From: Octopus sinensis
Lineage: Eukaryota
DNA: 17,314 bases
Direction: 5' to 3'
NCBI RefSeq assembly: GCF_006345805.1
Contig: NW_021825226.1
Span: 1-17,314, forward strand
Both the position numbers and the translations under genes were made by a program. Shown piece by piece: positions 200-17,314 of this stretch. Each line of letters begins with the position of its first letter. Positions within the stretch are counted from its first letter, which is position 1. The notes beneath the pieces were generated by a model, which saw only the letters and a list, made by a program, of their open reading frames with translations, was not told the DNA's origin and did not search any database.

Positions 200-412
200 A
201 TACTCTACGCCAGAGTATGACCGTACATTGATCCCAGATTAAAATAAGGGAATCCAGAAGAATAGCATTAAGTGAACACATCGACATTTGCGGCATAAAC
301 GAACAACCCGACTTTAAAATACTCCCTTCTAAAAATTGAGGGACAATGCAACCTATAATCATTAACAAAGAGTCATATTTTATCACAAAATATAAACCGA
401 TTTTGAATGCTT
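200..412 (+). pseudogene. Degenerate C-terminal part of a Penelope-like GIY-YIG endonuclease
   Basis: Manual translation across stops and frameshifts gives TLRQSMTVH*SQI..RRIALSEHIDICG..FKILP...KESYFITKYKPILN. This matches the L..R...H / H..C / E..FI....P.LN pattern at the end of PLE endonucleases. Confidence 0.7.
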
Positions 413-428
413 TCACCACGGATGACAC

Positions 429-822
429 ATTGGATTTTGGAAGAACTCCGTCGGTTACGACGACGAGGGTTCCGGTTGATCCGAATCAACGGAACAGCCT
501 GCTCGTGAAATTTACGTGTAAGTGGCTGAGCACTCCACAGACACGTGCACCCTCAACGTAGTTCTCGGGGATATTCAGCGTGACACAGAGAGTGAAAAGG
601 CCGGCCCCTTGAAATACAGGTACAACAGAAACAGGAAGTAAGAGTGAGAGAAAGTTGTGGTGAAAGAGTACAGCAGGGGTCGCAACCAACCCCTGCCGGA
701 GCCTCGTGGAGCTTTTTAGGTATTTTCGCTCAATAAACACTCACAACGCCCGGTCTGGGAATCGAAACCGCAATCCTATGACCGCGAGTCCGCTGCCCAA
801 ACCACTGAGCCATTGCGCCTCC
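429..822 (-). mobile_element. tRNA-derived SINE, head H1 + tail T1, full length with TSD
   Basis: Reverse complement of 990..1360 with a tRNA-like head. Flanked by direct repeat (CC)ACGGATGACAC at 416/418..428 and 821/823..833. Confidence 0.92.
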
Positions 823-989
823 ACGGATGACACTACTACTAGGATCTAAGAATAATACCGGCGCAAATATTAAAAACGATAGATATATTCAGAATAGTCG
901 CTACCAATGGATTTATTTAGAACAATTCCAACCGTTACTGCTACAACCACAACAGGTCACTTTTAGGAGACTTGACTACTAAAGAAGGT

Positions 990-1360
990 GGAGGCGCAAT
1001 GGCCTAGTGGTTAGGGCAGCGGACTCGCGGTCATAGGATCGCGGTTTCGATTCCCAGACCGGGCGTTGTGAGTGTTTATTGAACGAAAACACCAAAAAAG
1101 CTCCACGAGGATGGTGGTGATCCATGCTGTACTCTTTCACCACAACTTTATCTCACTCTTACTTCCTGTTTCTGTTGTACCTGTATTTCAAAGGGCCGGC
1201 CTTGTCACTCTCTGTGTCACGCTGAATATCCCCGAGAACTACGTTAAGGGTGCACGTGTCTGTGGAGTGCTCAGCCACTTACACGTTAATTTCACGAGCA
1301 AGCTGTTCCATTGATTCGGATCAACCGGAACCCTCATCGTCGTAACCGAGGGAGTGCTTC
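990..1360 (+). mobile_element. tRNA-derived SINE, head H1 + tail T1
   Basis: A box TGGCCTAGTGG (1000..1010) and B box GGTTTCGATTCC (~1043..1054). Highly similar to 429..822 in inverted orientation. Confidence 0.92.
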
Positions 1361-1696
1361 CATCACTACCGGTTCATACTACGCCTGTCATTTTCTTTTC
1401 TTTCTTCTTCTCCCTCTTCTTTTTCATCATCTGCTTCTCCTTCCTCTTCCTCTGCCATCTATTTATATGGTAACAATCAGCATTTCTCTGAACCCATAAC
1501 TATTTCTTCAGATCTACTACTGCTATTTGATGACTATGGAAATATTTACAACACATTGCATTTAATTTTCTCTCCAAATCAATTTAATTGTCTTTATTGT
1601 TTTACCGGTACTAGACTTTACAAAATGTACTTCATGCTAAAATTGTTGTCTTTGCCTTTCATCCTTTCGCGATCGATTAAAGAAGTACTAGTGTTG

Positions 1697-1975
1697 ATAT
1701 ATGTCTGTAACTATGTATGTATACATATATATATATTCAAATATATATATATATATACATACATGCATGTATATATATGTGTCTATATGTGCTATATATA
1801 TATGATGCATACATATTTATTATATGTGTATATCTATGCATGCATATGTAAACATTTATATTCGTAATATAATTTTTAATTCTTTTTTATTTGTAAAGAT
1901 ATATATATACATTTGTGCGCGCGTGTGTGTGCGTGTATACGCATGTATATAGGTGTATGTGCCATATATATTTGT
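1697..1975. repeat. Degenerate (TA)n/(TG)n microsatellite region
   Basis: Direct inspection. Confidence 0.85.
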
Positions 1976-2129
1976 ATAAAGAGAGAAAGATACTGACTTA
2001 ACCCATCCCCACGAAACTGCTGGCCTGGTGACTAGGTCTGTATCTATTATTACGTAAATGAGCATTGAGACTCCAATCGATGATCAAAATGTATTAACAT
2101 GTTTCTTGATTAAACATCATTTCCCTACT

Positions 2130-3095
2130 GACCTGATTTTACCAAAATCTCTCCATCCAGCTTTTGACTAGAATCGGTAACGTTCGAAAAACAAAGCCAA
2201 GCAAGAAATTCGTGACTAGAGAATATCTTACCCAATGAGACATGCGTGTATACCGCCATTATTGCTAATATATACGCTAAATTTGATTTCAATGTATCCA
2301 TACATTTTCTCTCGTTTGCGTCACGTAACAAAAAATATAGCTTTTATGTTTATTTCGTTGCAAACGTTTGCTTATTTTCTTTCTTTATCGTATTTTGTAT
2401 GGCGGACGCGTATCACAATTGTGTTGTTCTATCCTCCGATATTAACAAATGTCCGTAGAGAAAAACCAGCTGTTCTCATTTATTCTGGTGAAAATATAAT
2501 CCAAACCTTCTCGGGATATCCTGCTCTCTATAATCCAAATCAACAAAAAGCAAACAACATCCACTTTCGTAACGGTAAAATAAGTAAGCTCTCCAAGCTA
2601 TCAATAACCACAAAGAGATGTCTGTTGACAGTTTGGCAGCGTGTAAGACTTAAGCCTTGAAGGGAGAAAAGAAAGCCCATTTTAGTGGAATATACATAGC
2701 TGAAGAACGGGATTTAGAACTTAATAACAACGGACACATGTAGCTAGGCATACTGGTGCTCGATGATATGGATATATCGTGAAATGAAATGTGAAAGAAC
2801 AAACAAAATATATTTGAAAAGAAGCAAGTATTGGAGTCCGAACTTAATTCATGAAGCTTGATAAATGAGATCAAAACAACGACGTTTGCCATTGTGTATT
2901 AAAGTGTGGGATAGATGAAGTCGACGAAAGACGAAAGAGATGAATTAGATAGAAAAACGAAGAGAAAACACTAAACTACCCATGGAGCCCTTCATCTGAA
3001 GCCTAAAGCCATTGGTTTATACATGAAACGGATCTTTGTTGGGAGAGGACACATTAGCATTTCTGATTGTGTGAATGAGAAAAGAAAGTCTGTAT
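2130..3095 (+). repeat. Copy A of an old tandem triplicated unit (unknown segment + R4-like fragment)
   Basis: Collinear homology to 3265..3470 + 5281..6025 and to 6790..7506 + 7831..7882 + 10738..10930. A 31-bp block is identical at 2472, 5420 and 7209. Confidence 0.85.
2635..3092 (+). pseudogene. R4/Dong-like (RLE-type) non-LTR retrotransposon RT C-terminal fragment
   Basis: Degenerate translation LGIL..D..VLESELN..LINEI..ELDRKTK..L.YHGALH..LYMKR..GRGHISISDCV resembles the YLGI / LDRKTRK / HP..RLY..R..GGRGL motifs of R4-clade ORFs. Confidence 0.75.
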
Positions 3096-3479
3096 AAGAC
3101 GGCCAGATTTACGAGTCACCTTGTCTAATAAATGTGACTCATCTCCGAATAACGACCTTCACTTCAAATTGTAACTGTTGTTTCGTTGGTACAAGAAAAG
3201 TTGTTGCGTCTCTATCGGAACAGTTATAGGTACTTTCTTTATACTTTACTTTTTATTAACGGGATCAGGAAGATTAGCGTGTTACGTCCTAAGTTTTGCC
3301 TACTGAGGTCGTTTGCGTCAAAAATTTGAGATTTATTTTTTCACTGGTGATGTTTGAAAATGATAACGTGTAAGAAATTCTGAACCTTAAAACACCGTCC
3401 ATGTAATCGCTAAAATCTGATCTCATTCTGTCCACATATTTTCTCACGTGAGTGTCATGTTACCAAATGCATATGTATA

Positions 3480-3685
3480 TATAGTTAATTCAAACATGAA
3501 AACACCAAGAGAAAACACAAGAACGCGAGGACGGAGAGCAAATATAGTATTATTGAACGCTCAGGAAGAAAGGGAAGAAGGAGGATTTTACGTTTCGAGC
3601 GGAGCTCTTCGTCAGAAAGAAGGGAAAAGGAAAGATCCAGAAAAGGGAAGACGGAGGAAAAAATCGCCAACGGTACACACGCGGG
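3480..3685 (-). mobile_element. Penelope-like pseudo-LTR fragment carrying a hammerhead motif
   Basis: Strand-biased ~200-bp segment between microsatellites that contains a hammerhead core at 3586..3618. Confidence 0.6.
3586..3618 (-). ncRNA. Minimal type I hammerhead ribozyme motif (PLE-type)
   Basis: Minus strand reads UUU-CUGACGA-A-GAGC-UCC-GCUC-GAA-ACGU-A-AAA: core boxes, 4-bp stem II, palindromic loopless stem III (ACGU), GUA cleavage triplet and a weak 3-bp stem I. Confidence 0.7.
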
Positions 3686-3780
3686 TGTGTCTGTGTGTGT
3701 GTATCTCTGTGTGTGTGTGTGTGTGTGGTGTCTGTGTGTGTGTGTGTCTGTGTGTGCGTGTGTGTGTGTGTGTGTGTGTA
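3685..3780. repeat. (TG)n microsatellite
   Basis: Direct inspection. Confidence 0.95.
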
Positions 3781-4080
3781 TGAACTTCTGTTCCAAACGA
3801 TAAAGCCACATGTTTTTTAAAGTTATTTTAAAATCTAGCGCCGTATTTAAGTAAACTAAGGGGAACAGTACACTGTAAATGAGTATTTAGTGAATACTTA
3901 GAGATGTAAACCTTGTACCTCTGAGATGTAAAACATTTTAACACCTGGTTTTTCAATTGTTTTTAACATACAAACAGTTCAAAAGTATAAAGCTACTAAC
4001 ACATTTTCATTTCTTCCCATAGTGTTTCGAAAAATATTCGACTCAGTCGTATTCCCTGTGATCCAAATTACATTTCCAGT

Positions 4081-4371
4081 ATCCTTAACGCTGCCAAGTT
4101 TTCTGAAATTGAACAAGGGAAGATTCTTGCATTGAAAGTTAAAGGAATGAGTAACGTGAAGATTGATGTGAAGGTTCGACGAAGCAGAACACCAGTGGAG
4201 AATTTTCGGAAAGATCTTCACGGCTACAACAGGGTTCGTGCTGGTAGACGTCCCAAGGCTGCATCAGAAACGGACGAAAGGGCCATTGTCAGTGTTATGG
4301 AGAAGTCACATTGCGTTTCTGTTTCGAAAATCAAGGCGTCAGCAGATGTAGAAGCCTCGAAAGATGAGTGA
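4081..4371 (+). pseudogene. Tc3-like (Tc1/mariner) transposase N-terminal DNA-binding domain, truncated
   Basis: Open frame AAKFSEIEQGKILALKVKGMSNVKI..VRRSRTPVENFRKD..GY..RAGRRPKA.SETDERAI..IKA..ASK parallels the Tc3 HTH (LSDTERAQ..ISRSR..LKDP..Y..RRKALS.RDER..ASK). No DDE domain follows. Confidence 0.8.
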
Positions 4372-4663
4372 TTTTGAACCATGGTTTCGACCTGAAGAAG
4401 CGGCTAGGATGTCCGTTAATGTCCCTTTTCCACAAAGGTGTTAGACTAGAGTTTGTTAGGCAGCATTTAGACGTGGGATGAGGAATGATCCAGCGTTCTG
4501 TTCTCTGATAAGAGAAAATGGAATTTGGATTGCCACGACAGGTATAAACATTACTGGAAAGATAAATGTATGGAGAATTATAATTATTCTAAGTGGCAGA
4601 AAAACAGAGGAGGTTTTATAGTGTGCGGAATAATATCTGCCGCTGAGAAGCTTCCACTTGTCA

Positions 4664-4780
4664 TCGTGAAGCTTTAGAGGTTTTCGCTCAATAAACACTC
4701 GCAACGCCCGGTCTGGGAATCAAAACCGCGATCCTACGACCGCGAGTCCGTTGCCCTAACCAATGGGCCATTGCGCCACC
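4664..4780 (-). mobile_element. SINE head H1 fragment (3' truncated)
   Basis: Matches 704..822. Confidence 0.85.
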
Positions 4781-4852
4781 ACACACACACACACACACAC
4801 ACACGCACATATATATATGCGTGTGTGTGTGTGTGTGTTTATGTATGAATAT

Positions 4853-4883
<31 letters not shown>

Positions 4884-5188
4884 ACTTGATCACGTGACCG
4901 ACCAGGCTAGCAGATGTTGCTACACATCGCTGGTCACAATGCGCTTCGCATTGTTTTAGCCTTCAAATGACGCCACCCCGCTGGCTAAGCGAGCAGGCCA
5001 ACAGAAGAAAGAGCGAGAGAAAGTTGTGGCGAAAGAATACAGCAGGGATCGCCACCACCCCTGCCAGAGCCTCGTGGAGCTTTAGGTCTTTTCGCTCAAT
5101 AAACACTCACAACGCCCAGTCTGGGAATCGAAACTGCGATTCGACGCCCGCGAGTCCGCTGCTCTAACCACTGGGCCATAGCGCCTCC
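4884..5188 (-). mobile_element. tRNA-derived SINE, head H1 with a different tail (T2)
   Basis: About 5010..5188 matches the H1 head and body. 4884..5005 is unrelated to tail T1. Confidence 0.85.
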
Positions 5189-5189
5189 A

Positions 5190-5211
5190 TATATGTATAT
5201 ATATATGTGTG

Positions 5212-5280
<69 letters not shown>
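5190..5280. repeat. (TA)n microsatellite
   Basis: Direct inspection. Confidence 0.95.
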
Positions 5281-5599
5281 TTCTTTTCTTTTATTTCGTT
5301 GCAAATATTTGCTTTCTTCCCCTATCTTTTTTGCTTGGTGCAAGCGTATCTGTTTTGTGGTTCTAGAGCCGTTATTAATGAATGTCTACAGAGAAATGCA
5401 AAATAATAAAAGAACTCCCGTTCTCATTTATTCTGGTGAAAATATAATCCGAACTTGCTCGGGATATCCTGCTCTGTATAAACTAAAGGAAAAATAAGAA
5501 AATACAAAGGAAATAATGCAGCTATCCACTTTGGTAAAGGTAAAATATCTAAGTTCTCCAAGCTATCAATAACCACGAAATGATGTGTTTTGACAGATT

Positions 5600-6420
5600 C
5601 ACAGCGTGCAGGACTTTAGCCATAAAGAGAGGAAAGAAATGTTTTTTTCTCAGAAGAGGACTTTAGAACTTAATGACAATGGATACACGTATCTAGGCGT
5701 ACTGGTCTTAGATTATATAATGACATGACGCTTCGGCAAATGAAGAAAAACGTGAAAGCATGAAAGAAATATATATTCGGAAAGGTTAACGCTTGTATTG
5801 AAGTTATAAATTCACCCTTGGATTCTGATAAATTCGAAGGAAAAAAGGGTCGTTTGCCGTCGTAGATTACGTTGTTGGAATAGTGAAAAGGGCGGAAAGT
5901 GATATAGAAGGATTATATAGATATCAAATGCGTTGACCACTTCTCTCAAATACAAATTCCAGTCTTTTACACGATATGAAAAATTGTAGGGGGAGGATTT
6001 ATTAGCCTTCCTGATTGTGTGAATTGAGTACGCAGTAAACAAACCGTTCCTTGCAAAGTGTGAAGTACTATTTGGATATGTCAAAATAGAAACAAGGCCA
6101 TTTGAGCCTGATGAAGAATAATTTGTAAAAGAAATCCGGTGTTAGAAGAAGGACAGATATTCAGTTACATGGAGAGATCCACAGAAACCCCAAGAATGGG
6201 GAAACTCATGTTTCGTCATGGGAGGATGTCAGGAGTGGAGATTTAAAACACAAGAATAGTTACCGTTGTGCATTAGAGGGCTAAGAGTAGAGAATTAGAC
6301 GGAAAATGTAATATATTAATTAGATAAGAAAAAATAAAAGAAGGAACACTTTTATAGAGCCAATTATACTAAGGGCAATGTTAGACTTTCATACATAAAA
6401 CGCACGATGGCAAGGAGAGA
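5600..6420 (+). pseudogene. R4/Dong-like non-LTR fragment (copy B, longest)
   Basis: GYTYLGVL, GGGFISLPDCV and QLHGEIHRN..SWEDVRSGDLK (cf. LHG..W.WL..G.LK.E.E of R4-type ORFs). Homologous to 2635..3092. Confidence 0.72.
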
Positions 6421-6737: not shown

Positions 6738-7506
6738 ACTCAAGACTGTTATAGGATTTTTTTTTTTCAGTTTTGTTCTTTAAAAACGCGTTCAGGAAAG
6801 ATTAGCGTGTTGCTTGGTAACATAACTTTTCTCTCGTGTCCCCATTTTTACCAAAATCCCCATATCTAGTTTTGGAAAGGAACTGGTAACGTTTAGGAAA
6901 AAAATAAATTTCTAACTTGCAAAAATCTTCACCCAATGAAACTTGTGTGTGTATACCGCCATTATTGTCGATATAATCACTAAATTTTGATTTCGTCATA
7001 TCCATAAATATTTTCTCCTGCGTGAATTGTGTAACAAAAAATAAGAAAAAAAATGCTTTTATTCTTATATCGTTGCGAATATCTCCTTTTATTTTCCATT
7101 ATTTATCGTTTTGTGCATGGCGGAGGCGTATCTCTTTCTTTTTGTGGTTCTATACGGCATTATTAAAAGATTTCCGCAGAGAAAAAGCAGAATAATAAAA
7201 GAGCGTCCGTTCTCATTTATTCTGGTGAAAATATAATCCATACTTGCTTGGGATATCCTGCTTTGTATAATCCAAATGAAAAGAAAGAAATATCCATCAA
7301 CTTTGGTGACGGTAAAATATCTAAGATCTCTAAGCTATCAATAACATCGTAGAGATCCTGCGTTGACAGTTTGGCTGTGTGTATGTCTTTAGACATGAAG
7401 AGAGGGAAGAAAGCCTATTTTAGTGGAATAAACGTACCTGAAGAAAGAGATTTCGACCCTAGAACTATGAACTTATATAGCTAAGCATACTGGTACTCAA
7501 TGATAT

Positions 7507-7828
7507 GGCACTCCGTCGGTTGCGACGGTGAGAGTTCCAGCTGATCTGGTTAGCGGAAAAGACTTCTCGTGAAATTATCATGCAGGTGGCTGGGCACTCT
7601 ACTGACACGTGTGCCGTTAAAGTAGTTCTCAGGGAGGTTAAGCGTGACACAGAGTGTGACAAGGCTGGCCCTTTGAAATACAGGAACTACTCATATTTGC
7701 CAGCCGAGTGAACTGGAGCAAAGTGAAATGAAATGTCTTGCTGAAGGATACAACGCATCGCTGGGAATTGAACCCATAAACTTATTATCGTGAGTCGAAT
7801 ACCTTAACCACTGAGCCACGTGCCTTCA
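7507..7828 (-). mobile_element. Older tRNA-derived SINE: different head H2 (CORE-like) + tail T1
   Basis: 7507..7685 matches tail T1. The head has a tRNA-like part and TCCTTCAGCAAGACATTTCA. Degenerate TSD TACTCAATGATAT (7494..7506) / TACTCAAAGATGT (7831..7843). Confidence 0.82.
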
Positions 7829-7919
7829 CATACTCAAAGATGTAATGCTACAGAAGCTGGAGAAATGAGGGACAACATCAAAGGCGCAGGAGTCGCTGTG
7901 TGTTAAGTAGCTTGCTAAC

Positions 7920-10116
7920 ACGCATGCGCAGTTAGTCAGTTGCTTCCTGTTCAGCCAGAGTGGACGCGAGTCAACCAGCTCCGTCCAATTAAAGAAAAAA
8001 GACCAAAAACGGAAAGTTGTCGAGGTAAGTGATTTTGTTTATTGTGAGTTGGGCATAATTTATTGCGTGCCAATTATTATTTCAGTAAGTTGTGTCCAAC
8101 TCTGAGACAATTTCGCCTGCTCTCGGCAGCTGCCGTTTTTGTGTTCATTGAAAAAAAAAAAAAGAAAAAACAGTGGAGGGGCGTATCCTCGGAATTCAAT
8201 ACAGTTACTGTTAAAATTACCGTTGGCGGTAGCCAGTGCTGTGTTTGGGTTTGTTGAATTTATTCCCTTGTCAGAGTACTTCGCAAGAAAATTATAAAAA
8301 TAAGCCACTATTGGATTACCTTTCGGACCCATTTTTGTGGAGGTTGTGTTGCTGTTGCGGCGTTCCAGGCTCAACCCAGGCCGGGAGTACCGCAAGGCCA
8401 GAATATTTTTGCTGTGTTTTTTCTGTTTATTAACTTTCTTTTGAACTTCATTTAACCCCCCCCTTTTATTTTTTTTCTTTATTGCGACTTTCCGTTGATT
8501 TCTTCCCTTCTGTTGTGCTTTCTCCTTTTTGTTTTTTCATAAATCTATCAAATTTTATTTGGACTTTTGAACTTTTTTCTTCTTGCTTTTTGAGTTTAAT
8601 TTGAATATATTTTTAAAAAAACATGGCAATGAAAAATAACAAAATTTTGGAATGGGAAATCATACCACCTAAAAAGGGGTTAAAAGACCGTGAAGATAGG
8701 ACGGTGGTGTTGAGAACCTACTCCAAGGCACTCGACACCATCGCCCTATTCGAAAAGACGGCAATTGAAAAGGAGTTGGAAGAGTATTTGCCAACAATTA
8801 AATTCATTTCCAGGGGTGTCAAATATGCAACGGTGTGGTTGCTATTTGACACCCCTGAAGAGGCTTGCAAATTTGCTAGCAAACCCCTGGAGGGTAAGGA
8901 AATCTTATTCCTGCCCACGTACAAAAAAAAGAAATTGATGAAAGCTTGGATTTGCGGGCTGCCACCCGACATAGAACCCGAGTGGATAGAGGAGACTATC
9001 CGCGGGGTCTGGGTGGCAGCGAAACTAAGCTCCTTAATGTAAAAGTTCTTCCTGCGGCTGCTTGGGTTGGGTCAAAAGCAATTTTGACCCTGTGGACCCA
9101 ATCAGCCAATCTGGTTCTTCCAGATTTTTTGAAAATGGCCGGGTGCAGGTACCCGGTGATGCTTGAGGGTCGCCCCCCTAAGTGTCATCGGTGCTTGGAG
9201 TCCGGCCACATAAAGAAGAACTGTCCTCGGGAACAAAATAGGATCCCGGAACAGTTAAGTAAAACCCCTCTAGAAGAGGGAACGATAACGGCCGAGAAAG
9301 CAGAGGACTCCTCAAACAGAGGCCGAAAGAGGAAGGTGAGCAACAATGGGTGCTCACCAAAGGATAATAGGGATGAGGAGAGGAAGGCGAATCTTCCAGC
9401 CAGGGAGGAGACGGCACCCTCCCTCAGTTGAAAAGGGAAAAAAATGAAAAAGAGGAAGAAAAACGGGACATTACCGGCTGTCAGTGTAACACCGGAATGT
9501 CCCGGAACTACGTCGGTTGGGGTTGTGCCACCGACAAGAGAAGGAATACCGTTGGCGGGAACTGTGCCGCCAACGAAAGAACTGAACGTATTGGTCCTCT
9601 TCTATAGAGGAGGAGTAATTGAAAAAAAATTATGGAAGAGCACCACAAGGGAGCAACTTTAGCCTTCACACAGGACCCCGAATGGCCTCCGCAGATAGCT
9701 GTGGAGGCCGTGGCGTTCGACGTAACGCTTGGGCTAAAGGAGCTCAATGAAGATTATAGCTTGGTCCCGGGCGACGCGAACTCGGAACTTGATTACGTTC
9801 TGAGGGAGGCGTGGTTGATGGTGGAGGGCGCGGGCACAAGCTATTTCGAGGACGATATGTAATTATTGAACTGTTAGTATTAATAATGGACTGCTAAGTC
9901 CAAAAATTGGAAAAATTTTAAGAGGTTTAATACCTCGTTTTGTGTTTATCTTTAAAAAGAACAATGTTTTAGAGAAGCGAAAGTCGGCGGGCGCTTTTTG
10001 TCTTCTCCCATCCTTATCATCTGTCTTTCATTATCATTCACTTCATTAATGTCCTCGTCCAGCCCGCAAAGCTAACTTAATCTGTGTACTGCCTTTATGG
10101 CAAATGTTTTGAAATA
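7920..10116 (+). mobile_element. ORF1-only (HAL1-like) non-autonomous non-LTR retroelement, L1/Tx1-related
   Basis: Exact 15-bp TSD AAGTAGCTTGCTAAC (7905..7919, 10117..10131). About 700-bp 5' UTR, a gag-like ORF and a ~250-bp 3' UTR ending in AATAAA. No RT. Confidence 0.82.
8623..9862 (+). CDS. L1/Tx1-type ORF1 (gag-like) nucleic-acid-binding protein, ~413 aa reconstructed (2 frameshifts and 1 in-frame stop as assembled)
   Basis: RRM-like region (TVWLLFDTPEEA, WICGLPPDI..EWI), then LPDFL..EGRPPK-CHRCLESGHIKKNC (CX2CX4HX4C, 9183..9224), a basic low-complexity linker and an acidic C-terminus. Frameshifts at G4 (9004..9007) and A8 (9622..9629); TGA at 9429. Confidence 0.75.
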
Positions 10117-10268
10117 AAGTAGCTTGCTAACCAACAACATGGTTCCGGGTTCAGTCCCACAGCGTGGCATCTTGGGCAAGTGTCTTCTGCTATAGCCTCG
10201 GGCCGACCAAAGCCTTGCGAGTGGATTTGGTAGACGGAAACTGAAAGAAGCCTGTCGTATATATGTAT

Positions 10269-10318
<50 letters not shown>

Positions 10319-11711: not shown

Positions 11712-11746
<35 letters not shown>

Positions 11747-11917
11747 CATATATACGACGGACTTCTTTCAGTTTCCGTCTACGAAATCCACTCACAATGC
11801 TTTGTTCGGCCCGAGGCTATAGTAGAAAACACTTGCCCAAGGCGCCATGCAGTGGGACTGAACCCGGAACTATGTGGCTGGTAAGCAATCTACTTACCAC
11901 AAAGCCACTCCTACGCC
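11271..11917 (-). mobile_element. SINE family 2 copy with a ~200-bp insert (11510..11712) in its internal microsatellite
   Basis: Tail 11271..11510 and head 11741..11917 match family 2. Confidence 0.88.
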
Positions 11918-12494
11918 TTATATAGGCGAATTTCTGGCAAATAATACCGAAAGGCGTCCTTCTCTGCGGCTATAACGATTTTGCCAATTTGCCGTCTTAA
12001 TAATATTTTGGACTGTTTTGTAGTGTATTTAGCATGTATGTTTTTTTAATAATAGAGTAACGGCGTAAATTTGTTTGTACCTGGACCAAAAGAGATGTTG
12101 GTTGTTAGGTTTAAAAAAATTTGTTATATTCAAGATAACTGGTAAACTCTGACCTCATTACATTTTGGGAAACAAAGGAAAGTTCGACGACATGAAGAAG
12201 GGGTCAGACAAAATTGGCCTCATTATTGTAGAAGCGATTAGTTACGCTTCTTAAAAAGATCGATATTATTGATAAAGAAAACAAAAGAAAAAAATGTAAT
12301 AGCCGTGATATATAAGTATATATTTAGAAGACGGAACCGAAATATTGTTTTTTATTATAGGAAGGAAAGAGAAGAAAAAAAGAAACAAAATGTCAGTGTA
12401 AACTTCTTGGAAGAAATTTGAGTTTGTTAGGAAAATAATCGATATTTTTTGTATTATTATTCGTGTGTTATTGGTGGTGGTGGGGGGGGGGGAG

Positions 12495-12625
12495 ACAGCG
12501 AGTTGGCAGAAATGTTAGCACATTGAAGAAAATATCTAAAAGCATTTCTCTAAACTCTTTCATCTGTCTTTCGATTCAGAGTTCAAATTCCACTGGGGTC
12601 AAGCCTGCCTTGCATCATTTCGAGG
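12495..12625 (+). mobile_element. Old SINE-like family 3 fragment (duplicate at 13388..13530)
   Basis: GCGAGTTGGCAGAA..GTTAGCAC..GAGTTCAAATTCC is shared with the 14436..15015 copies. Confidence 0.7.
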
Positions 12626-12649
12626 TTGGAATATCTATATAATATATAT

Positions 12650-12824
12650 ATATACATATATACGACGGACTTCTTTCAGTTTCCGTCTACGAAATCCACT
12701 CACAAGCTTTGTTCGGCCCGAGGCTATAGTAGAAAACACTTGCCCAAGGCGCCATGCAGTGGGACTGAACCCGGAACTATGTGGCTGGTAAGCAATCTAC
12801 TTACCACAAAGCCACTCCTACGCC
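12650..12824 (-). mobile_element. SINE family 2 head (duplicated copy)
   Basis: Nearly identical to 11741..11917. Confidence 0.88.
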
Positions 12825-13640
12825 TTATATAGGCGAATTTCTGGCAATAATACCGAAGGCGTCCTTCTCTGCGGCTATAACGATTTTGCCAATTTGCCGT
12901 CTAATAATTTTGGACTGTTTTGTAGTGTATTTAGCATGTATGTTTTTTTAATAATAGAGTAACGCGTAATTTGTTTGTACCTGGACCCAAAAGAGATGTT
13001 GGTTGTTAGGTTAAAAAAATTTGTTATATTCAAGATAACTGGTAAACTCTGACCTCATTACATTTTGGGAAACAAAGGAAAGTTCGACGACATGAAGAAG
13101 GGGTCGACAAATTGGCCTCATTATGTAGAAGCGATTAGTTACGCTTCTTAAAAAGATCGATATTATTGATAAAGAAAACAAAAGAAAAAAATGTAATAGC
13201 CGTGTTATATAAGTATATTTTAGAAGACGGAACCGAAATATTGTTTTTTATTATAGGAAGGAAAGAGAAGAAAAAAGAAACAAAATGTCAGTGTAAACTT
13301 CTTGGAAGAAATTTGAGTTTTTTAGGAAAATATCGATATTTTTTGTATTATTATTCGTGTGTTATTGTGGTGGGTGGTTGGGGGGGAGACAGCGAGTTGG
13401 CAGAAATGTTAGCACATTGAAGAAAATATCTAAAAGCATTTCTCTAACTCTTTCATCTGTCTTTCGATTCAGAGTTCAAATCCACTGGGAAGCCTGGTTG
13501 CAAGCCTGCCTTGCGCATTCTATTCGAGGTTGGAATATTTATATATATATATATATATATCTAATATATATAATGTGTTGTGTGGTGTGTGTGTGTGTTG
13601 TGTGTGTGTGTGGGTGTGTTGTGTGTTTATATATATATAT

Positions 13641-13815
13641 GGCGTAGGAGTGGCTGTGTGAAGTAGCTTGCTTACAAACCACATGGTTCCTGCTTCAGTC
13701 CCACTGCGTAGAACCTTGGGTAAGTGTCTTCTACTATAGCCTCGGGAAAACCGAAGCCTTGTGAGTGGATTTGGTAGACGGAAACTGAAGGAAGCCTATC
13801 GTATATATCTATATA

Positions 13816-13865
<50 letters not shown>

Positions 13866-14315
13866 GTGTGTGTGTGTGTGGTGTGTGTTGTGTTTATATA
13901 TATATGGCGTAGGAGTGGCTGTGTGGGAAGTAGCTTGCTTACAAACCACATGGTTCCTGCTTCAGTCCCACTGCGTAGAACCTTGGGTAAGTGTCTTCTA
14001 CTATAGCCTCGGGAAAACCGAAGCCTTGTGAGTGGATTTGGTAGACGGAAACTGAAGGAAGCCTATCGTATATATCTATATATCTATATATATGTATGTG
14101 TGTGTATACGTTTGTGTGTGTGTGTGTGTTTATCTCCCCAACAAACCGATGCTTGTGTCTTTACGTCCCCGTAACCTATCGGTTCGACTAAAGAGACCGA
14201 TAGAATAAGTACTAGGCTTACAAAAAATAAGTCCTTGGGTCGATTTGCTCGACTGAAGGTGGGGCTCTAGCATGGCCAGAGTCAAATGACTGAAACAAGT
14301 AAAAGAGTAAAGAGT
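13641..14315 (+). mobile_element. SINE family 2: duplicated head (13641..13830) followed by a full copy (13906..14315), period 265 bp
   Basis: GGCGTAGGAGTGGCTGTGTG occurs at 13641 and 13906 with shared private variants. Confidence 0.9.
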
Positions 14316-15112: not shown

Positions 15113-15277
15113 TAATACATATATATACATATATATATATATAATATTATATATTTATATATCTATATATATATATATGTATATATATATATACATATAT
15201 ACACACACATATATATATATACATATATATACAATATATATATATATGTATATATATGTATATATATACATATATCA
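15052..15277. repeat. Compound (TA)n/(GA)n/(CA)n microsatellite
   Basis: Direct inspection. Confidence 0.95.
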
Positions 15278-15652
15278 CAAATAAGAAAATGGAGGAGAAC
15301 AATAGGTAGTTCATCAACTTTTGGACAATAAAATGTTAACTTATTTATTTATTAAACTGATAATTATAATAACATACCTGCATATAACATATTATTATTT
15401 GCATATAAGGTATAAGATATAAAATATAGTAATATATAAGGATAACAGAAATTATTATAAAAAATATTTTTAAAATAATTTCTGGTATCCTTATATATTA
15501 CTATATTTTATATCTTATACCTTATATGCAAATAATAATATGCTATATGTATGTATGTTATTATAATTATCAGTTTAATAAATAAATAAGTTAACATTTT
15601 AATGTCCAAAAGTTGATGAACCACCTATTGTTCTCCTCCATTTTCTTATTTG
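15278..15652. repeat. 375-bp near-perfect spacerless palindrome
   Basis: Arms of ~187 bp with about 7 mismatches and 1 indel by manual comparison; centre at 15465/15466. Confidence 0.95.
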
Positions 15653-15760
15653 CTATATAAATTAATGGTAAAATATCTCTTTACCTTCACCCATTTAGTA
15701 CACTAGGTAAGTTAATTGCAATGCAAAAAAAAAGCACTTGTGTATTAATAATTGAGTATT

Positions 15761-16179
15761 CTCTTTAAACTCTTTTTACTCTTTTACTTGTTTCAGTCAT
15801 TTGACTGCGGCCATGCTGGAGCACCGCCTTTAGTCGAGCAAATCGACCCCGGCACTCATTCTTTGCAAGCCCAGTACTTATTCTATCGGTCTCTTTTGCC
15901 GAACCGCTAAGTGACGGGGACGTAAACACACCAGCATCGGTTGTCAAGCAATGCTAGGGGAACAAACACAGACACACAAACATATTCACACACACTTATA
16001 CATATATACATATATACGACAGGCTTCTTTCAGTTTCCGTCTACCAAATCCACTCACAAGGCATTGGTCGGCCCGGGGCTATAGCAGAAGACACTTGCCC
16101 AAGATGCCACGCAGTGGGACTGAACCCGGAACCATGTGGTTGGTTAGCAAGCTACTTACCAAACAGCCACTCCTGCGCC
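15761..16179 (-). mobile_element. SINE family 2, full length
   Basis: Head GGCGCAGGAGTGGCTG, B box GGTTCAGTCCC, CORE-like CTTGGGCAAGTGTCTT and tail (GTAAAAGA)n. Confidence 0.92.
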
Positions 16180-16429
16180 AGCAGTATATTGAATAGATAT
16201 TATCCCTTAGTGGGTTGCTTTTCCCAATATAATGTGGCTGTCCTGAAACGGACGAAAATATAAGTGTGTCGTATAACCGGCTAGAAACGATATTTTTCTT
16301 GGTTCTAAATCAACACCAACATCGTCCCTTTCAGGGCAGTCAGATGAATTTGGCAAATCGTATTTGCTTTAAAATATCTGCTACTGAGTGACTCTCTTTG
16401 AAAGATTTAAAAATAATTATAATGTATAT

Positions 16430-17314
16430 AGATACATTAGTCTCAAATCATGGCCCACCACTTCATCCTACGTGGATATCCCCTCAACACTATCCCCACC
16501 GCTCTTGACAGTGCATATTCCGTGAGCTGTGCCTCAACCCTCTCCCCCGCACCCGCCCCGTCGTCTCCGTCTCCCTTCACCTACTATCCCACCAGCCTAC
16601 CTCTCCAACGCACCAGTCTCTGAGCCTTCCGGCGACTCCAGTCCGACAGTTCTACTTCGCAAATCTTCCCTAGCCGACGCTACCTCTCCTTCAAACAAGC
16701 CAACAACCCACTAGACCTCTTGGCCCAGAGTTTCTTCCCTAGACCAACCTCTCAACCCGGCTCGTTCCCCTGCTCACCCCAGGCTGCCGCACTTGCCCTT
16801 ACTTCTCCAACACCACCCTTCTTACTGTCACCCATCATCGATCCTATCATATCACCGACTCCTTCACCTGCACTTCTAGCAATGTCATCTGCTGCGTCAA
16901 CTGCACTTTCTGCCGTTCTCTATACATCGGGCAAACGGGAGGCTGACGGTTCTCGGAAGACCTCCGAGACATCCGATTCGGCAATGACACCCTGGTCTCG
17001 CGCAAATCCGCTCTACCCCTCATTCTTTGCAACACTTGTCTGTATTCGGATTGCCCTTGCACAGGGGCCATCCGGACTCCCGTCTTGCTGTGAACAGGGA
17101 TTAATCTTCTCTCTCCTCTCCTTTGCGCCACATGGGCTCAACTCTCCTGCCATCTTCATCTATCCCTTTTGCCCCTCTCCTCTCTTCATCTCGCACCTAC
17201 ATATTCCCACCCATCTCTCCTCGCTTGCTCCGACTCCTACTTCTTCTCTTCACTCCTACCCTACTTCTTTCTCCTCTTCACTCCTACTCATCTTCTCCCT
17301 CATCGTCACCCTCC
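16430..17314 (+). mobile_element. Degenerate Penelope-like element (Neptune-type): RT C-terminal linker, Cys-rich motif, GIY-YIG endonuclease and pyrimidine-rich 3' region
   Basis: FILRGYP..LPFTYYP..RLQSD..IFP; PGSFPC..CRTCPY..FTCTSSNVICCVNCTFCRSLYIGQTG..RFSEDLRDIR..EQGLIFSL..APHGLN (16756..17150). Confidence 0.85.

Follow-up and report, generated by a model that had tools for sequence, protein, structure and literature searches.

The analyzed window, i.e., the whole stretch of 17,314 nucleotides of Octopus sinensis DNA (contig NW_021825226.1), contains on its forward strand a unit of 2197 bp (positions 7920-10116), which is enclosed by exact 15-bp direct repeats at 7905-7919 and 10117-10131, as had been claimed in a preliminary description of this locus. 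The unit is composed of a 703-nt 5' leader (7920-8622), a single ORF1-type gene (8623-9862) and a 254-nt 3' trailer (9863-10116) ending at AATAAA without a poly(A) tail; the leader and the trailer correspond to the long 5' and the short 3' untranslated regions described earlier.

The repeats bordering the unit are a real target-site duplication, yet one located within a SINE, so its sequence is not unique. The 15-mer has seven matches with at most two mismatches in the window (0.02 expected), and the five other than the two repeats all lie inside SINE copies. Adjacent to the left duplication, which is itself SINE sequence, is the 5' head of an interrupted octopus SINE (7883-7904, forward strand, with an A-box-like motif recognized by eye), which aligns with five intact copies in the window, while the remainder of the same SINE follows the right duplication (10132-10318, forward strand, with a B-box-like motif, also recognized by eye, and a (TA)n tail). 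When the empty site was rejoined (7883-7919 plus 10132-10258) and compared with the intact SINE at 16170 on the reverse strand, 149 of 157 aligned bases were identical. Judging from this alignment, the flanks of the element derive from a single octopus SINE copy split in two, and the insertion point is in the SINE head, between the box-like motifs. By eye, these motifs suggest a tRNA origin of the interrupted SINE; Rfam and ARAGORN returned no tRNA match for it, and Rfam gave chance matches only.

The SINE context also affects how the junctions should be read. The left junction was earlier given as TT/AAGT and treated as the trace of an L1-type nick. TT does precede the left repeat, but it is a variant of the interrupted SINE copy (among the five intact copies, GT/AAGT occurs at the insertion site in three and TT in none), and because the insertion site is a SINE, the TT/AA argument for an L1-type signature is weak. 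The AATAAA reported at the 3' junction is present (10113-10118), but its last two adenines are those of the duplication, and the element therefore has no poly(A) tail. A small TGCC-N5-GGCA hairpin does occur nearby, at 10090-10102, but it does not exceed the chance level (18 of 200 shuffles yield one; fold z 0.08).

Several other repeats were observed in the window. Two copies of another SINE-like repeat form a 254-nt inverted repeat (438-1362, 94% complementary), and a 267-bp unit with a SINE and a microsatellite tail is tandemly arranged in 2.2 copies at 13535-14129. Three decayed copies of one repeat, 75-87% alike, are located at 2446-2619, 5394-5501 and 7183-7356, a decayed Tc1/mariner transposase at 4000-4680 (HTH_Tnp_Tc3_1, E 8.3e-05), and an AT-rich inverted repeat of 193 nt whose arms are 3 nt apart, MITE-like or foldback, at 15271-15659. 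The region 16400-17314 contains broken frames whose appearance, by eye, suggests the GIY-YIG terminus of a Penelope-like element; a 67-aa piece from this region gave no match in Pfam.

The coding part of the element had been described as one gag-like ORF with a CCHC knuckle. The knuckle was found, as a single CX2CX4HX4C motif at 9183-9224 on the forward strand (Pfam zf-CCHC, E 0.0029, with a score of 18.1 bits, which is below the Pfam cut-off of 20.8), but the gene is not one ORF in the window copy. It is broken at four places (approximately 9002, 9413, 9437 and 9622), leaving two ATG frames, one of 139 aa (8623-9042) and one of 98 aa (9135-9431), and further pieces up to the stop at 9862. The frame of the family comprises predicted RRM1 and RRM2 domains, the knuckle, a low-complexity charged linker and a C-terminal piece that matches no known family. 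The reported absence of reverse transcriptase (RT) was upheld, as neither an RT nor an endonuclease family was detected with Pfam in the four ORF pieces scanned, and within the 3' trailer no open frame of note and no ORF2 remnant was recognized.

The closest protein, P0001 of O. sinensis, shows 72% identity over the first 126 aa and 57% identity with the next 155 aa of the window copy, which lie in another frame, and it is continuous across the first frame break. Moreover, indels of one or two bases carried by other copies at 9002, 9413, 9437 and 9622 indicate a frame of about 412 codons without internal stops (413 including the final one). The continuity of P0001 and these indels indicate that ORF1 is open at the level of the family. 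The window copy itself is dead or mis-sequenced, as follows from its four frameshifts and from its near-private ORF changes, six of seven of which are non-synonymous among the displayed sites. The breaks may reflect either decay or long-read error; the latter is conceivable because a nearby 0.9-kb tandem duplication (11735-12640 and 12645-13545) differs mostly by gaps (22 gaps and 9 mismatches over 885 aligned bases). This pattern resembles long-read indel error, and frameshifts elsewhere in the window may also be artefacts. Synonymous changes account for 5 of the 13 polymorphic and 1 of the 7 near-private sites among the 20 ORF substitutions displayed (199 substitutions overall), and these 20 are too few for dN/dS. 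RNA editing was considered as well and rejected, since A>G changes outnumber T>C changes in the copies to about the degree expected from the A/T ratio of the strand.

The search with P0001 among 1.84 billion representatives yielded 47 relatives at E<=0.001. Of 20 whose records were inspected, twelve bear Octopus or Argonauta names, which supports the octopus origin. In addition, zf-CCHC was present, at E<=5, in 14 of 17 aligned relatives. Transposase_22 was found neither in the four ORF pieces of the window nor among the 20 families matched by these 17 relatives. In the AlphaFold2 model of P0001, built from a 17-row alignment (pLDDT 78.5, pTM 0.59), the knuckle and a disordered tail come after two alpha/beta RRM-like domains. 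Foldseek matched this model with tandem-RRM proteins (E 1.4e-5), and in VIA comparisons residues 14-99 resembled the La RRM (Z 8.4) and residues 103-183 the U2AF65 RRM1 (Z 8.0), where Z values, up to 8.7, are near the common-fold level, although RRM domains account for many of the 50 rows. The ORF1 protein is thus predicted to comprise two RRMs and one CCHC knuckle, i.e., to be a type I ORF1. Its last 77 aa had no relative recognizable by Pfam or BLASTP, and a profile of the C-terminal stretches of five relatives gave no match to the last ORF piece among 459 peptides. No ORF1-ORF2 fusion protein was found by an insensitive search among 5103 candidates of 1403-4005 aa, nor among 7999 candidates of 493-2000 aa, a search which also missed four known relatives of the same length and consequently provides no evidence. 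The Atlas neighbours of the ORF1 protein include ZCCHC3-type RBD clusters, which we presume to be linked to Tx1 ORF1. The available text of PMC10351740 does not state this link.

Among P0001-P0047, many divergent members of this ORF1 family were observed in octopus annotations as uncharacterised or misnamed genes. For instance, P0005 is annotated as 'EPM2A-interacting 1-like', in P0002 46 aa of ORF1 are fused to an integrase piece, and the relative LOC115225585 is represented in RefSeq by three isoforms with one protein. Metagenomes, GTDB and viral contigs contained no relatives of the element, as expected for an animal repeat.

The leader carries promoter-like motifs in its first 30 nt (at 7922, 7936 and 7943), which we assume to be putative NRF1-like, Inr-like and ETS-like sites (7922-7949), as well as a long hairpin at 8046-8102. 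The sole consensus splice-donor match of the whole window is located at 8022-8030, within this leader, and the element may have a 5' UTR intron. Folding predictions revealed several hairpins in the coding region, the strongest at 8811-8857 on the forward strand (z -6.05, with 0 of 200 shuffles as good), and a module of three hairpins placed just after the stop codon (9878-9947, forward strand, fold z -2.64, 2 of 200 shuffles). In other copies this module is tandemly repeated, as shown by back-joints from 9942/9947 to 9878 in runs X1 and X2 at depths of 225-5661. The 3' trailer as a whole folds no better than its shuffles. The element strand is rich in hairpins, its coding part included: seven of 30 non-overlapping 70-nt windows had z<-3 against four of 194 elsewhere (Fisher p 9e-5), in a count from which 23 of 247 windows had been dropped as microsatellite or junction-straddling and in which the control consists of decayed repeats, not of other coding DNA. 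Our guess is that the hairpins, or the three-hairpin module, serve recognition by ORF1 or ORF2.

The element, or a part of it, was detected in 20 of 24 public runs (nine studies, four organism labels), and in 15 of the 24 at least half of its words were present, with 0.65 as the best value. None of the runs containing it is recorded as RNA, although X13 may be of this type. Four of these runs (X1, X2, X4 and X13) were aligned to positions 7700-10300 at 85% likeness; their contigs are short, and none of those listed spans the unit. The material listed, in which SINE matches dominate, comprises 15 of 252 joints, 24 of 2529 loose ends, 12 of 26 indels, 40 of 199 substitutions and 32 of approximately 416,000 records. 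Other copies cover all 30 bins in each of the four runs. In X4, contigs differing by two letters from the window (records 26 and 32) occur at a depth of about 475, and diverged contigs at depths of 7-17.

The passage from ORF1 to the 3' region was followed in several contigs. Record 16 of X13 bridges the ORF stop (9706-9941), record 23 of X2 extends over 9919-10042 with 12 substitutions at a depth of 193, and X4 includes contigs with ends as much as 52 letters away from a variant at 10023 (approximately 9971-10075). High-depth contigs with indels at 9871-9874 and 9950 were present in three to four runs, and the summed depth, which is a weak measure and not a copy number, increases two- to sixfold at bin 9962-10048 relative to the preceding bin in all four runs. 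The bridging contigs come from different runs and reach about 10075 of 10116, so that copies continuing past 10116 or bearing ORF2 would be invisible to these data. As far as these contigs extend, the layout from ORF1 to the 3' end appears common to other copies, which indicates a multi-copy family.

These observations sustain the proposal, made in the preliminary description, that an octopus harbours a non-LTR family which is non-autonomous and has ORF1 only: the element is multi-copy, its stop codon is bridged into the same 3' region, other copies carry indels at the four breaks, and the closest protein is from O. sinensis. We consider it probable that the window copy is a member of a multi-copy octopus family with one ORF1-type gene, no RT and a 15-bp duplication in the SINE head, which would have been copied by target-primed reverse transcription by means of the ORF2 protein of a full-length LINE, probably of the Tx1 group. 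ORF2 would be borrowed in trans from this partner, for which neither the fusion-protein searches nor the metagenome, GTDB and viral collections yielded a candidate. Tx1 is our best guess, given the ORF1 type, the 15-bp duplication, the nesting in a repeat and the L1-Tx1 families of O. vulgaris.

In the proposed mechanism, an internal promoter in the 5' leader would produce the element RNA, which would be coated by the element's own ORF1 protein, and the latter might co-assemble with the ORF1 and ORF2 proteins of the partner, as was proposed for HAL1, HeT-A and Ag-Sponge with the proteins of autonomous LINEs (PMC5786205). A nick made by the partner's endonuclease at T/AAGT in the bottom strand would release a T-rich end, which could pair with the terminal AAUAAA of the RNA and prime reverse transcription, and a second nick 15 nt away would give rise to the 15-bp duplication.

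Other explanations of the same structure have to be weighed against this ORF1-only family. The 2.2 kb might constitute the 5' portion of an autonomous LINE of greater length, with the window copy derived from an RNA cut at the internal AATAAA and with ORF2 placed downstream in the remainder of the family. Every bridging contig would then look as it does here, and loose ends at 10116 are hidden behind the SINE matches, which is compatible with continuation into ORF2. However, cleavage at an internal AATAAA signal leaves a spacer of 10-30 nt and a poly(A) tail, whereas the window copy ends at AATAAA itself and has neither; furthermore, the summed depth rises towards 10048 in four of four runs, as it would, weak as this measure is, at a true 3' end. 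We therefore regard a longer LINE as unlikely. A single event of internal deletion in a full-length LINE, during or after insertion and at this locus only, had been named beforehand as the finding that would speak against a family, and its examination on the contigs of other copies makes it very unlikely, because the ORF1-to-3'-end layout is shared. Copies diverged by up to 10%, at depths far above the lowest, bridge all three of the stretches listed above, and the indels at 9871-9874 and 9950 recur in high-depth contigs of three to four runs, even though no single contig spans the unit and the window copy is decayed.

It is also conceivable that the family is ORF1-only and that its partner lies outside L1/Tx1 (e.g., in I/Nimbus, CR1 or L2 with a type I ORF1), as this ORF1 type is spread over many clades, the 3' end of the element has no poly(A) and there is no RT for classification. 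The ZCCHC3-type RBD clusters among the Atlas neighbours, if they are related to Tx1 as we assume, argue against such a partner. So does the single knuckle of the element, the multi-member type I groups having mostly three according to the available text of PMC4120745, and so do the 15-bp duplication and the nesting in a repeat, which fit the habits of Tx1 (PMC4494074). In addition, the LINEs recorded as active in O. vulgaris belong to RTE, Dong-R4, CR1, L1-Tx1, Hero and R2 (PMC13282606). On balance, a partner of this kind is distinctly unlikely. It is hardly credible that the element is a processed copy derived from one host gene encoding an RNA-binding protein: the listing of LOC115225585 by RefSeq as a gene with three isoforms and the splice-donor consensus in the leader could be quoted for it, but there are many diverged copies per run and dozens of divergent octopod paralogues, poly(A) is lacking and the donor site is retained in the leader.

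For the ORF1-only family, the preference for the SINE site was considered separately. Record 25 of X4 (168 letters), one contig over the 5' junction among the 32 of approximately 416,000 records listed, aligns end to end with 7905-8070 with 17 substitutions and two gap letters. Since the aligner elsewhere clips unmatched ends, even of one letter, this contig appears to carry the same SINE 15-mer. It represents a copy diverged by 11%, which is unlikely to be the orthologous locus of the window copy because X4 also has copies differing by about 1% from the window, and two chance insertions at one nucleotide are improbable given that there are six SINE copies in 17 kb. The shared 5' junction could alternatively result from co-duplication of the SINE together with the element, and not from independent targeting. 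In PMC4494074, target specificity is defined by more than 20% of the flanks of a family being in one repeat at one site, a level far above what two insertions can show. With one further contig, i.e., two insertions including the window copy, a preference of the family for this SINE site is a tentative reading, to which we give slightly less than an even chance. More doubtful still is the extended version, in which an ORF1-only Tx1-type family borrows a site-specific ORF2, hits one nucleotide in the head of an abundant SINE between the A and B boxes and thereby disables the SINE promoter, and in which the hairpin-studded coding RNA is a packaging signal for the family's own ORF1 protein.

Published ORF1-only derivatives are described for the L1, Jockey and CR1 clades of LINEs. 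If our reading is true, a Tx1-type, molluscan case would be added to them, and it supports ORF1 retention as a recurrent way to hijack the ORF2 of a partner. Should the SINE site prove to be a genuine target, a repeat class occupying about 12% of the O. vulgaris genome would serve a Tx1 endonuclease as a safe haven. The enzyme would then be a naturally occurring sequence-specific endonuclease that is open to testing, and bursts of SINEs would be linked with the spread of LINEs in octopuses. Without targeting, the element is a useful yet ordinary addition to octopus repeat libraries. Many of the 'uncharacterised CCHC proteins' of octopus annotations are likely to be LINE ORF1s.

A type I ORF1, in which an RRM is placed upstream of CCHC (PMC5203782, PMC4120745), is tied in non-mammalian animals to the Tx1 clade when it has the RRM + CCHC form (PMC5203782), and it also occurs in the I, Jockey, R1, Tad1, L2 and CR1 groups (PMC4120745). 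The predicted protein of the octopus element agrees with this feature of the Tx1 clade, which is not exclusive to it. Within the genus candidate partners exist, since 80 L1-Tx1 families were reported for O. vulgaris, of which 13 have been active recently; the 421 insertions of these extend over 2.29 Mb and average about 5.4 kb in length (PMC13282606). Tx1-clade elements with target preference include Tx1L in Tx1D, Tx1-Mar together with SINEU in Mariner-N4_AMi, and Keno in U2, and non-autonomous passengers share their targets (PMC4494074). The octopus element resembles them in being nested within another repeat, possibly at a preferred site, and in the predicted RRM + CCHC type of ORF1; it differs in having no RT, and the SINE head is not among the targets named in the available text of that source. 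Our literature search found no L1/Tx1-type or molluscan ORF1-present non-autonomous LINE, and no ORF1-only or SINE-targeting Tx1 element of cephalopods, although such an element may be deposited as L1-Tx1 in Repbase or Dfam, which were outside the search.

The preliminary description filed the element with the mammalian HAL1/L1 group, an assignment that finds no support, given the predicted two RRMs and CCHC of its ORF1, the lack of a Transposase_22 match and the missing poly(A). The ORF1 of HAL1 is of the Transposase_22 type II (coiled coil, RRM and CTD), and HAL1 has a 3' poly(A) tail, whereas the octopus element encodes a protein with two predicted RRMs and CCHC, has no poly(A), resides in a mollusc and is inserted in a SINE. 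The common features are both LINE ends, ORF1 only, a target-site duplication and presumed mobilisation in trans (PMC5753468, PMC5786205); the presence of both ends and of ORF1 without ORF2, as claimed earlier, accords with the definition of HAL1. HeT-A (Jockey clade) and Ag-Sponge (CR1 clade) are grouped with HAL1 as ORF1-present non-autonomous LINEs (PMC5786205). Like the octopus element, they are ORF1-only LINE derivatives of invertebrates, the protein of which is thought to multimerise with the proteins of the partner, although they belong to other clades and HeT-A is telomeric. The octopus element fits this wider class of ORF1-present non-autonomous LINEs, and it represents a HAL1-like way of life, probably arising from the Tx1 group, in an octopus, i.e., a known kind of element in a new lineage.
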